From the NCBI GenBank assembly GCA_041750285.1, contig JBGSZS010000002.1, positions 76,910 through 140,909 of the forward strand: 64,000 nucleotides of DNA. Direction: 5' to 3'. Numbering within the stretch: the first letter of the stretch is position 1; each line of letters starts with the position of its first letter. This document shows, piece by piece, positions 649 through 4,320 of this stretch. Source of the DNA: Candidatus Fermentibacteraceae bacterium. Lineage in GTDB: Bacteria; Fermentibacterota; Fermentibacteria; Fermentibacterales; JCC-6. The position numbers were made by a program, and so were the translations under genes. The notes under the pieces are model-generated. The model was not told the DNA's origin, made no database searches, and saw only the letters and a program-made list of their open reading frames with translations.

Positions 649-680
649 TTGCACCCGAGTTCCCCGGGGATGTATACAAT
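649..680 (+). promoter_or_regulatory. Putative sigma70-type promoter for the FG-GAP gene
   Basis: TTGCAC (649-654) followed by TGTATACAAT (671-680); GGGGAGG RBS at about 693-699. Confidence 0.4.
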
Positions 681-705
681 GCTGCAGCGTGAGGGGAGGC
701 CATAT

Positions 706-1896
706 CTGAATGCTCTTTTACTTATAGCTCTCCCGGCTTTTCCTGGGCTTGTGGAGTTCCATGCCGAGGGACCGATAGCCGATGGTGGCAAACAACTCGA
801 CGTGGGAAGTTACGCGGCGCCGCTGATGACGGACTGGGACGGCGATGGTCTTGAAGACCTCCTTGTGGGCCAGTTCGACGGGGGAAGGATCAGGTTCTAC
901 CCCAATCTGGGATCCCGGCAGGCACCGGTGTTCGATGGTTTCGAGTATCTGATGGACGGGGAAGACTACCTCTCGGTTCCCTACGATTGATGCACCGGGG
1001 CCACGGATCCACAGGCTGTGGATTGGGACGGCGACGGCAGACCCGACATTCTGGTGGGAGACCGGGAGGGAAACATCCACTTCTTCAGACGCCTCGAGTA
1101 CGGGGTGGTCAACCTTGAGGAGCAGGACCCGGTCGAAGTCGGCGGCAGGCCGATTGACGTGGGCTACAACTCCGCACCGTGCGTCACCGACTGGAATGCC
1201 GACGGTCTTCCGGACCTTGTCGTTGGCAGCCTGAGCGCGGTTCCCGCCGCGGTCTTCCTGTTCATTGACGAGGGGTCGCCGTACTCTCCGTTGTACGTTC
1301 AAACCGACACCGTTCTCTGCCAGGGGGCACCCATCCAGTTGACGGCAGCCTACCCCGACATCCATGACCTGACAGGCGACGGCCTGGAGGAGCTGCTTGT
1401 GGGCTCGGCCAACGGGAACGTCCTGTGCTGCGTCAACACCGGAACACCCGGAAACCCGGTCTACGGATACTCGGAGAACCTGAGGGCCGATGGCGGGGAG
1501 ATATACTTCTGTTCGTACGTCAGGCCCTCCATCTGCCAATGGAACGGCGACGGCATCCCCGACCTGCTCCTTGCGGACGACAGCGGGATGGTCCACCTGT
1601 TCACCGGGGTGCCTCCGGAAGGTGTTCCGGAATACCCCGCGGCTTCGGTGAGGTTGCTGCGGAACCCGGCAACAGGTTCCGTGAACCTGAGGGTTAACCT
1701 TCCCGAGCCCTCGCAGGTGGGAACGGCGCTGTTCTCCCTGGACGGAAGGCTTCTCGGATCGGTGGAAAGCGGCATTCTGCCTGCGGGTCCGAATACGGTG
1801 ACTGTTGCCTGCGGGCCGCTGCCAGCGGGGCTCTACGTACTGCGCGTGACCGCCGGAAACAGCGCTGAAATCCTCAGGGTGGCAATCATTCCCTGA
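706..1896 (+). CDS. Secreted FG-GAP/VCBS-repeat protein with T9SS-like C-terminal domain; in-frame UGA at 988-990, candidate selenocysteine (U95-C96)
   Basis: ORFs 61..990 and 1018..1896 are in the same frame, joined by TGA-TGC-ACC-GGG-GCC-ACG-GAT-CCA-CAG-GCT-GTG. Five DWDGDG-type repeats span the junction. Hydrophobic N-terminus LNALLLIALPAFPG after the RBS (probable CTG start at 706). C-terminal NPA..FSLDGRLL..LPAGLYVLRV sorting-like domain. Confidence 0.8.
1001..1026 (+). promoter_or_regulatory. Candidate bacterial SECIS element
   Basis: Perfect stem ATCCACA (1007-1013)/TGTGGAT (1017-1023) closing a G-starting loop (GGC) 23 nt downstream of the UGA; extendable by a G-U pair and CC/GG. Confidence 0.55.
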
Positions 1897-1909: not shown

Positions 1910-1931
1910 GGGGCGCCCGGATGGGCGCCCC
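1910..1931. terminator. Hairpin between convergent genes, probable bidirectional terminator
   Basis: GGGGCGCCC-GGAT-GGGCGCCCC, a 9-bp stem between stops at 1896 (+) and 1948 (-). Confidence 0.7.
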
Positions 1932-1947: not shown

Positions 1948-4320
1948 CTACCTGATGACCATCAGACCGGTGGTGGCGGTGAAGTCACCGGCGGTGATCC
2001 TGACCCTGTAGGCCCCGTTGGGAACCGGCGAGCCGGAGGGGCCGGCAAGGTCCCACGTGAGTGTGTGGGCGCCGGCGGGAAGCTCGCCCTGGTTGACGGT
2101 CGTTACCAGGCGTCCGCTGATGTCGTAGACCTGCATGCTCATGACAGCGGCTCCGGCCAGATCGACCGGGATCGAGACGATGGATGCAGCCGGGCTGGGA
2201 TAGGGCATTCCCACGCTGTTCTCGAACCCGGAGAGACCCTCGGCCGAGTGCTCGATCTCGGTGCCCGATACGGTGGCCGTTCCGAGGTAGGTCAGGTGGT
2301 TCTGCTTCCAGGCCGTGACGTACATGGTTCCAGTCGAGCCGGGGGTGGGGGTGAAGGTGGCCTGTCCCGATGCGTTGGTGGTGGCGACGAGGTAGACGTC
2401 GGCGGTCTCGAAGCTGGTGCCCTTGTAGAGTGTCACCCTTGCTCCGCTGACCGGAGAGCCTCCCGCAGTCACCGTAACGGTGAAGCTCCCGCCGGTGAAC
2501 GTGGAGGGGTGGGAGCCGCTGAGCTGGGTCGGGGATGCTGACCACAGCGGAAGTTCGGGGCAGCCGAAAAGGTTGTACTCCATGATGCACCAGTGACGGT
2601 AGGCATTCGATGGGGGACAGATGCTGTATCGGCCCATGAAGTGCATGGCGCCCAGTGTGCTCTGACCGCTGATGAAGTGGCTGTAGTAGATCTTCTGGCA
2701 GAGTATTTCGCTGTCGCCGTTCCCGGGGCTGCTGGGGTTCCCCCAGCCGTACCTGGCACATGCGCCTCCGAAACCCCCGCCGTTGACGTTCGATGTCCAT
2801 GCGTCGAGCATGCACTCGGTTCCGTCGAGGTGGCCGATGAGGCAGCTTATGCTGTTCCAGATCGCTGGAAGGCCGCCGGAAGAGATGTTCGTAAGGGCCA
2901 GAATGTTGCTGTTTGTGAAGCTGCCGCCGGGAACGCCGAACGACTGCTCGCTTCCGTGGGCGGCCACGTAGACATGGTGGGGGCCGGCGTTGAACATGGA
3001 GTTGGTTGCAGCCCAGTTGTTGGTTCCATTGGATTCGTAGCGCTTGTCCTGGCTCCAGTTTGCCGGGATGTAGCCCGATATGATCTACGCGCCCGCGCTG
3101 CCGTAGCACCCCGGCCATAGCATAGACGTGCTGTAGCCAATGCGCAGCTCACGTACCGCTGTTGTGGGCTCGTCGGAAAGCGAGACCTGCTCGTAGGCGA
3201 GGACCTTGTTCACGAAGGTGTTGGCCTCGGCTGCAGTGTTTACGCTGGCGCGGCCAGTGAAGATGGCGGGAGTGTAGCTCATCTGGTCTATGTTGTACTC
3301 GCCCCACACATTGTTGTTGTTGGAGTCCCACCGGTCGGCTGCCGGCGCGGTGTCGTTCAGATCGGACCAGTAGTAGTCGACAGGGGGATACTCGTTGTAG
3401 CCGCCGGCGCTGATCTTGACATCGCGCCCCGCGACCTTGTCGTCGTCGCCGAAGATGAGGGCGAACTCCACGCCATTGTCACTGGCTTCGTGGAGAAACA
3501 TCCTGATCTCATGCTGAAGGTCGTCACCGGTGTACTGGGCCTGGATCTCGGTGGTGGTTATCACTGTGGCGGGGATGCCCTTGCGGGTCTTCCAGTTTGC
3601 AAGCGTGTTGGCCTGGGCGACGTAGTCGGGGTGGGTGATGATGACGTACTCGCCGAAGGTGAGGTCACGGCTCTCCACTATGGCAGCACCGCTTGACAGG
3701 ACGTCTTCGGGGTTCACCACGGCGTTCCTGACGACATCGGAGGTCCGGGCTTCGCTCTGGGCGCTGCGAACCTGAACCGTCCTCATGGAGGGGTCGGCAA
3801 CATACTCGACGTGAAGAGTCACGCTTTCGAGCACTTCGATGGTTCCATCGGCCGGGTTCCAGCGAACCGGGTATACCGACACTCTGGCGACAGGAAATCC
3901 CAGAAGGACGCTGGAGTTCTCAAACCTGGCGATGGCGCCCGGGAAGGTCTCGGTGGAGTTGTAGATGCCTGGGTCGGGGCGTGGCATCGGGATGGTGGCG
4001 CCTTCCATGAGGCTCAGGGGAACCTGTTCGACGGCCGGAAGGATGTTGTACCTGCCCCTCAAAGGAGCGTAGGAGGCTTCGACGACCGAGACTGAAACCG
4101 CACGGCTCTCAGGGGGAAGCGCAACATGCACAGGCAGCACCGGGAGGGCCGGGGCTCCGATCGCTGAGAGCGGGTAGGTGGAAGGGGAGGAAACAGTCGT
4201 GTATCCCGCGAGATCAGTCATGGAAACCGAAGAACCATCGAACGGGACGGTTACGGTGAGTTCCCCGGCGAATGCCGTAGCCGAGGCGAGAATGACCAGC
4301 ATAACGATCTTCACAGCCAT
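1948..4320 (-). CDS. Peptidase C25 (gingipain-like) with propeptide and FlgD/T9SS-like C-terminal domain, interrupted by one in-frame TAG at 3085-3087 (read-through, nonsense mutation or sequencing error)
   Basis: Signal peptide, C25 propeptide (GAPALPV), EYVIIT..LANWKTRKG, DYYWSDL, TGRASV..FVNKVLAYE. After the TAG the same frame continues IISGYIPANW.. into catalytic AAHGS and NSISCLIG, EYNLFGCPEL, and a C-terminal YDISGRLVTTV..HTLTWD..PNGAY domain. Confidence 0.85.

Follow-up and report, generated by a model that had tools for sequence, protein, structure and literature searches.

At the beginning of a 64,000-nucleotide stretch of the genome of a Candidatus Fermentibacteraceae bacterium (contig JBGSZS010000002.1, positions 76,910 to 140,909; the whole stretch is referred to here as the window) lies an open reading frame (ORF) on the plus strand which ends at a TGA at 988-990 and is continued in the same frame by a second ORF at 1018..1896. 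Read through this TGA the two form one complete gene (670..1896) with its own TGA stop at 1894-1896, the product of which would be 408 aa from ATG 670 or 405 aa from ATG 679. With selenocysteine (Sec, U) at the TGA the local sequence is ..LSVPYD-U-CTGATDPQAVDWDGDG.., the Sec-spanning segment of the read-through product being ..SVPYD-U-CTGATDPQAVDWDGDGR, and the very next codon is a Cys (TGC, 991..993) that is at least 90% conserved in alignments A1 and A2. Comparison of sequences leads us to conclude that the UGA at 988..990 (residue 104 from ATG 679) is very probably decoded as Sec and that this is a genuine selenoprotein gene. A first-pass annotation of the sequence had described the division of two same-frame ORFs by the TGA and the adjoining Cys codon, both of which are borne out; its start at position 706 is however a CTG, an unlikely start codon, and the in-frame ATGs at 670 and 679 fit better. 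It had also anticipated that gene callers would split the gene, and the public protein sets do hold only a 292-aa C-terminal fragment, named either 'hypothetical protein' or 'T9SS type A sorting domain-containing protein' (T9SS, type IX secretion system).

The source genome is a 2.55-Mb draft in 23 contigs, which leaves some room for the TGA to be a sequencing or assembly error. The base check used assembled contigs rather than raw reads. One study, possibly the one from which the genome came, has two runs whose Logan contigs cover the gene and show 0 differences, at depths of 56 and 9. In a different study a contig spans 987-1238 and differs at 5 positions, all of them outside 988-990. Independent contigs therefore carry the TGA, a point that the first-pass annotation had left to be confirmed, and with the same TGA present in paralogues and homologues an error in the source genome is hardly conceivable.

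The genome encodes the machinery needed for Sec incorporation, with selA (490 bits), selB (306 bits), selC (tRNA-Sec, 73.2 bits against a cut-off of 47) and selD (341 bits, with an in-frame TGA of its own in ..CAGUAGK..) all above their curated cut-offs, so that the four genes whose presence had been proposed as a check on the annotation were all found. The anticodon tca is carried by tRNA-Sec alone among the 48 tRNAs identified by ARAGORN, and tRNA-Trp has CCA. TGA is also an ordinary stop codon, ending 25 of 57 family genes as well as the gene at 670..1896, and a reassigned genetic code is thereby ruled out. Another reading of the UGA at 988-990 would have it decoded as Trp, Cys, Arg or Gly, an ordinary amino acid in place of Sec, whether by near-cognate decoding or under such a reassigned code. 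Leaky UGA read-through does occur in bacteria, and Gly occupies the Sec column in most relatives that lack the TGA (see below). Against this stand the restriction of the UCA anticodon to tRNA-Sec and the presence of a hairpin that fits a bacterial selenocysteine insertion sequence (SECIS) and is under apparent purifying selection at synonymous sites, and we regard decoding as an ordinary amino acid as very improbable.

This hairpin lies on the plus strand at 1006..1024, within the codons for D-P-Q-A-V-D-W, with a stem formed by 1006-1013 and 1017-1024 and a loop GGC at 1014-1016. The stem contains 8 pairs, one of them G-U, the loop begins 23 nt after the UGA and the predicted energy is -8.1 kcal/mol. 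A hairpin with a G-led loop starting 23 nt downstream had been noted in the first reading of the sequence and is indeed present, as are the same stem-loop in relatives and the compensatory changes that speak to its conservation. The consensus for bacterial SECIS elements requires a loop of 3-9 nt, a stem of 4-16 bp, a spacing of 16-37 nt, a G within the first two loop positions and a minimum free energy of no more than -7.5 (PMC13188914, section 5), each of which agrees with the hairpin at 1006..1024 (3-nt loop with G first, 8 bp, 23 nt and -8.1 kcal/mol). The loop may alternatively be read as A-GGY-U, in the form N1-G-G-N-N2.

In order to see how far the hairpin is held in the family we looked at codon choice and pairing across 58 genes, delineated under looser rules than the strict motif scan described below and including the gene at 670..1896, in which identity falls to about 30%. 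The codons for [N/D/S]-P-Q-x-V-D spell A/G-A-U CCA CAG GYU GUG GAU in these genes. Pro is encoded by CCA in 49 of 58 (10% elsewhere in the same genes) and by CCG in 9 of 58, while CCC and CCT together account for none at the hairpin against 55% elsewhere; Asn is AAT in 48/48 cases (28% elsewhere), Val is GTG in 54/54 (30%) and Ala is GCT in 23/23 (21%). The four changes from Val to Ala (GTG to GCG) are all accompanied by CCG (4/4), by which an A-U pair becomes G-C and the encoded amino acid is changed. Three of the 58 genes differ in the spacing between UGA and hairpin; the remaining 55 were aligned without gaps, and in this alignment the helix is 92.8% paired, a figure that drops to 24-43% with the partners slid. 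At pair 24-32, 46 genes have AU, 4 GC and 4 GU with none unpaired, and pair 20-36 is AU in 38, GC in 4 and GU in 1 with 11 unpaired. These patterns point to purifying selection on the hairpin RNA at synonymous sites.

Homologues of the gene are widespread among related bacteria. Matches at E<=1e-15 were found in 42/61 related genomes and in 62/70 genomes of the phylum, in both cases with up to 9 copies per genome, the phylum set comprising one order and three families whose Fermentibacteria-type identity follows the titles of the public records. Two tandem paralogues on contig C4 of the same genome (39% and 37% identity) each have a single TGA in the same column, followed in both by Cys (..LPYG-U-CTGATNPQVVDW.. 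and ..CSYG-U-CTGCTNPQVVDW..). Among the matches listed that span the site, all contain exactly one TGA save two (G010:C419 and G063:C35:13825-14973), and a strict motif scan of the fetched loci found the TGA in 49/49 distinct loci. The first-pass annotation had looked to homologues for TGA at the same position, and this holds for the strict-motif loci, for the 58 genes and for nearly all full-length matches.

The surroundings of Sec vary more than Sec itself. Variants with Sec retained include U-C-C-G, C-U-P-K-T-G, U-G-Y-C, U-C-G-P and C-U-D-Y, in which the partner Cys shifts to -1 (C-U-P-K, C-U-D-Y) or +3 (U-G-Y-C) and the distance from Sec to the hairpin remains constant. A sub-family represented by L058 and L060 (G008:C29 and G022:C12) reads ..GY-C-U-PKTGARNPQVVDW.., with Cys preceding Sec, and has one additional codon before the hairpin, giving 26 nt between UGA and hairpin versus 23. 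One TGA-free member within the phylum (L061) reads ..LPTDDCPVSGATSPRMVDW.., has a single Cys and has lost the hairpin sequence. Another, in G063, adjoins a U-C copy in a tandem pair (L204, G063:C35:13400-16800, minus strand) and reads ..LPYG-E-T-TGATNPQVVDF.., with GAA ACC at the Sec and Cys codons and the hairpin intact; judged from its sequence it is a recent duplicate in which Sec and Cys were lost together. In 10 full-length TGA-free relatives from the databases the Sec column holds Gly in 6 and Cys, Asp, Ser and Leu in 1 each, the lone Cys being that of P0067 (S-C-C-V-G), and the Cys column after it is kept in 9/10 as G-C-x-G. Sec usually aligns with Cys in homologues; here its column is mostly Gly in the TGA-free relatives, and conservation lies with the adjacent Cys. 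Sec would seem to sit beside a family-wide Cys rather than plainly replacing one, a one-column shift in the alignment being possible.

These data bear directly on the possibility that the UGA is a true stop, leaving either a pseudogene or a 106-aa secreted fragment together with an internally started protein of 292 aa. The databases do hold the 292-aa fragment, starting from GTG 1018 (P0002 and others), and TGA is a normal stop in this genome. A true stop would nevertheless have to account for a break kept at one column in 58 genes with identity down to about 30%, and in 62 of the 70 phylum genomes, with no other stop or frameshift. It would interrupt the propeller within blade 2, although the fold is modelled with confidence, part the signal peptide from the sorting domain and leave the conserved hairpin and the Sec machinery unexplained. 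We consequently give termination at this codon very little credence and favour its decoding as Sec.

The read-through product is predicted to contain a five-bladed FG-GAP beta-propeller (751..1623, plus strand; residues 25-315 from ATG 679) by both Pfam, in which FG-GAP_3 (5.5e-18, 65.8 bits) and FG-GAP (8.2e-12, 45.2 bits) score above the gathering score, and an AlphaFold model built from a 59-row alignment with a mean predicted local distance difference test (pLDDT) score of 93.2. The five FG-GAP repeats described by the first-pass annotation correspond to five D-x-[DN]-x-D-G repeats in the sequence, which form Ca-binding-type loops on the plus strand. These are DWDGDGLED in blade 1 (832..858, its columns invariant or nearly so in A2), DWDGDGRPD in blade 2 (1021..1047, overlapping the 3' arm of the hairpin), DWNADGLPD in blade 3 (1189..1215), DLTGDGLEE in blade 4 (1366..1392) and QWNGDGIPD in blade 5 (1537..1563). 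The best superposition by VIA-align was with the five-bladed glycoside hydrolase family 43 (GH43) structure 4mlg_A (Z 18.6, root-mean-square deviation 3.1 over 246 residues), followed by GH32/62/130 enzymes and the glutaminyl cyclase 3mbr_X (Z 15.6), all at 5-13% identity. In Foldseek the best PDB matches were seven-bladed FG-GAP or BBS propellers (integrin alpha, BBS proteins and, as 9etn, CRTAC1), with E-values of 1e-9 to 1e-7 and TM-scores of only 0.3-0.4. On the model, the repeats appear to be of FG-GAP type but are arranged in five blades rather than the seven of integrin alpha.

In the model Sec104 and Cys105 are flanked by residues 103 and 106, each an isolated bridge, and the innermost strand of blade 2 starts five residues further on. 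The loop that holds them is several residues longer than its equivalents in the other four blades. In propellers generally, the loop that connects the outer strand of a blade to the inner strand of the following one is found on the top face close to the axis, and it is there that enzymes of this fold have their substrate site. Secondary structure and this general topology would place the Sec104-Cys105 pair on the top face near the central channel. Besides Sec and Cys the invariant columns are Asp and Gly of the Ca-binding-type loops and turn residues, and other polar residues of the top face are not conserved, which makes the Sec-Cys pair the only conserved candidate for a functional site.

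Both ends of the product suggest passage out of the cell. The N-terminus (MLQREGRPYLNALLLIALPAFPG.., 679..759, plus strand) resembles a signal peptide by eye, with pLDDT of 52-55 over residues 1-20, and the paralogues have clearer signal sequences, e.g. MKGFIALTLLSAGLAMA. The C-terminus (1645..1893, plus strand; residues 323-405) is all-beta in the model and forms a beta-sandwich that resembles a T9SS type A sorting domain. Relatives in the databases carry precomputed PF18962 (Por_Secre_tail) assignments, and SprA, the translocon, is encoded in the genome with a summed score of 453 bits against a cut-off of 200. For the sorting domain that the first-pass annotation assigned to the second ORF the model shows this beta-sandwich, with profile scores in this copy that lie under the curated cut-offs. 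Given a signal-like N-terminus together with a T9SS-type domain, the product most likely leaves the cell and is anchored to its surface.

Taken together, we propose that the organism's own SelB and tRNA-Sec would decode the UGA at 988-990 as Sec, directed by the hairpin at 1006-1024, an element internal to the coding sequence and formed from the D/N-P-Q-x-V-D-W codons. The resulting protein would carry a signal-peptide-like N-terminus, a five-bladed propeller of Ca-binding type and a T9SS-type C-terminal domain. Comparison supports the fold class and the family as well as the recoding with its SECIS and Sec machinery. An exported FG-GAP propeller displaying a vicinal Sec-Cys pair, as put forward by the first-pass annotation, is hence the best reading of the locus, and the homologues, the Sec machinery and the TGA itself, which it had named as points where that reading could fail, all came out in its favour.

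As to what the pair does, it might cycle between a selenol/thiol and a selenenylsulfide state, in the manner of the Cys-Sec centre of thioredoxin reductase or of a peroxidase, and would then act on an extracellular oxidant, disulfide or polysulfide. We tentatively favour such a redox-active centre, at somewhat less than even chances, because the partner Cys is always near Sec yet free to sit at -1, +1 or +3, because both were lost together in one copy, because no further ligand residues are conserved and because the pair resembles the thioredoxin reductase centre. The Sec-Cys pair may alternatively bind a soft metal or metalloid (e.g. Cu, Hg, As, Ni or Cd) in a surface receptor or scavenger, which would still be a selenoprotein. 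Up to 9 diverged surface paralogues per genome would suit a family of binding proteins, a reductant for a redox cycle at the surface is not evident, and several catalogued selenoproteins with adjacent C-U or U-C are metal-related (PMC13188914, Table 1). With two ligands alone such a site would however be weak, and the invariant columns include no additional Cys, His or Met; the TGA-free relatives retain a single Cys, and movement of the partner Cys between -1, +1 and +3 is easily tolerated by a resolving Cys. A metal site is in our view possible but less likely than the redox-active centre. The gene neighbourhood offered no conserved neighbour gene or operon partner among 228 clustered flanking ORFs from loci L020 to L060; these ORFs showed only local synteny between close orthologues, in groups of 8-9 loci, which the window does not share.

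A number of points weigh against the interpretation offered here. The support for selenium incorporation is comparative throughout, and of the 9 sequencing runs that contain the stretch none is RNA. The single-sequence fold of the hairpin does not go beyond chance (z = -1.03, with 29/200 shuffles folding equally well), and it is raised above chance by its conservation in relatives; the observed pairing score of the alignment was reached in 4/500 shuffles, a control that overstates the support as the family genes are kin and their counts are not independent. An extended lower stem (columns 8-15 with 43-50) was weak at 69% paired and was excluded from the element, and Rfam gave no match to 960-1080 at E<=10. 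Exchange of Sec for Cys among homologues is only partly seen, in 1/10 of the TGA-free relatives, where the loop alignment may be off by one column. With regard to export, the C-terminal domain scores below the cut-off with both PF18962 (1.3e-3, 19.4 vs 27 bits) and TIGR04183 (2.3e-4, 21.1 vs 23 bits), and the PorV-like protein of the genome reaches only 111.6 bits against a cut-off of 250. The placement of Sec on the top face derives from secondary structure and topology rather than from the coordinates of the model, and we know of no electron donor for a redox cycle at the cell surface.

The gene resembles other SelB/SECIS-dependent genes, of which fdhF of E. coli is the prototype, in having an in-frame UGA with a hairpin just downstream inside the coding sequence and a G in the first loop positions. 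The loop here is GGC; with the closing A-U pair opened it reads AGGUC or AGGUU, and the apical loop of fdhF is likewise AGGUC. The gene differs from them in that its protein belongs to no known selenoprotein family of oxidoreductases, and in its short hairpin, whose sequence also encodes a conserved peptide of a propeller blade, N-P-Q-V-V-D-W. With the FG-GAP/VCBS propellers (the integrin alpha headpiece, CRTAC1 and BBSome subunits) the product shares the Pfam FG-GAP models and the D-x-D-x-D-G loops, and is distinguished by its five blades and by the TM-scores of 0.3-0.4, whereas the likeness to GH43 4mlg_A and to glutaminyl cyclase 3mbr_X is one of shape only. Sec is found in none of these propellers. 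Mammalian thioredoxin reductase has a C-terminal Gly-Cys-Sec-Gly redox centre that can form a selenenylsulfide. The present family shares with it a vicinal Cys/Sec pair flanked by Gly, with variants that read Y-C-U-P, and departs from it in the mostly U-C order, in the position of the pair in an internal propeller loop instead of a flexible C-terminal tail, and in the absence of a flavin domain and of a known reductant. Sec beside or near Cys is also found in catalogued selenoproteins of different folds and domains, including CopZ-type GxUC and CU proteins, DUF1573 (UGC) and the CU proteins MerB-like SaoL, HgcA, MbdU and KCU-star, a group predicted to be redox or metal proteins (PMC13188914, Table 1).

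To look at the distribution of the family we scanned one genome per species with a 36-letter pattern over the UGA-Cys and the hairpin. At least 123 stretches were found, 80 of which were made into loci, with fewer than 1 expected by chance by our own arithmetic. Among the stretches listed, the genomes bearing the pattern are mostly named Fermentibacteria, Aegiribacteria, Sabulitectum or Hyd24-12, other names being Desulfuromonas sp. SDB, Desulfuromonadaceae, Stahlbacteria, Fibrobacteres and plain 'bacterium' (G+C 35-50% in all five). The five genomes with these other names all encode full-length members with G-U-C-[T/I]-G, and the family has likely spread beyond the Fermentibacteria-type phylum, with mis-binning a possibility.

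The first-pass annotation did not recognise the gene as belonging to a characterised selenoprotein class, and the available resources agree. NCBIfam has no selenoprotein model that matches, giving only Por_Secre_tail and two weak domain matches, and there is no FG-GAP, VCBS, propeller or T9SS entry among the 119 prokaryotic selenoprotein families of a 2026 catalogue (PMC13188914, Table 1), most of whose bacterial members are thioredoxin-fold or metal-cofactor enzymes. No FG-GAP or propeller-type selenoprotein is mentioned in the accessible text of the deep-Sep paper or in that of the BSepDB main text, apart from its family table, and full-text searches of the literature found, among the records listed, nothing relevant on FG-GAP selenoproteins or on selenocysteine in Fermentibacteria. 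We propose that these genes constitute a new family of SECIS-dependent bacterial selenoproteins, unusual in fold, location and copy number. Its members would be beta-propeller selenoproteins, a fold class absent from the PMC13188914 table, probably displayed on the cell surface and present in up to nine copies per genome in a candidate phylum about which little is known, the whole family being systematically truncated by gene callers. They would also provide a SECIS, compact and well defined, where Rfam has none for the lineage, and they raise the testable question of what role a lone selenol-thiol pair could have outside the cell of a strict anaerobe.

Other in-frame UGA sites occur elsewhere in the genome, outside the window. 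A GG[U/C] core in the apical loop at similar spacing is also seen at those of selD and of a propeller with BNR/Asp-box-like repeats. The selD gene (contig C18:51102-52022, L009) is itself a selenoprotein gene (..CAGUAGK..) in which a hairpin read by eye as CCCGGC-AGGUU-GUCGGG, not the minimum-energy fold, starts its loop about 22 nt after the UGA. The second propeller, also of T9SS type, is encoded on the minus strand of contig C9:49058-51472 (L205:159-2573:-; P0122) and is 805 codons long as read. It contains one in-frame TGA (..LEGSG-U-GGVELYKSTDGG.., G-S-G-U-G-G) followed by an 8-bp hairpin with loop GGU (CAGACGGA-GGU-UCCGUCUG). Matches at E<=1e-30 were found in 46/70 phylum genomes, the majority of the full-length ones having a single TGA at identities down to about 37%, and the same TGA column was verified in only 6 loci of one genus. 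It probably represents a further selenoprotein family missing from the catalogues.

With a second T9SS propeller carrying a conserved TGA in the same genome, selenium use in the phylum looks aimed at the cell surface. One could speculate that Fermentibacteria-type anaerobes and some other T9SS lineages export a 'surface selenoproteome' through the type IX secretion system, an idea that we consider rather unlikely as it stands, as we do the assignment to it of the FG-GAP Sec-Cys family and the BNR/Asp-box propeller among its parts. Were it true, it would amount to an extracellular selenium-based redox system, acting beyond the outer membrane on e.g. peroxide, disulfide or polysulfide, which to our knowledge has not been described for any bacterium.

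A scan of 560-2000 found no sigma-70 promoter, though these organisms may use other promoters, and the terminator scan of the same interval gave a single chance-level terminator inside the gene. Between the gene and its convergent neighbour lies a GC-rich inverted repeat, GGGGCGCCC-GGAT-GGGCGCCCC (1910..1931, no strand assigned), which went unscored in the terminator scan because it lacks a T run. The convergent neighbour (1948-4320, minus strand) encodes a gingipain-like T9SS protein, of C25 type by eye, in one frame of 790 codons that is interrupted by a single TAG at 3085-3087 (..YGSAGA-*-IISGYIP..), which could reflect a pseudogene, an error or read-through. Upstream, the ORF at 2-625 on the plus strand looks from its translation, by eye, like the C-terminal part of a YifB/ComM-type Mg-chelatase-like ATPase.

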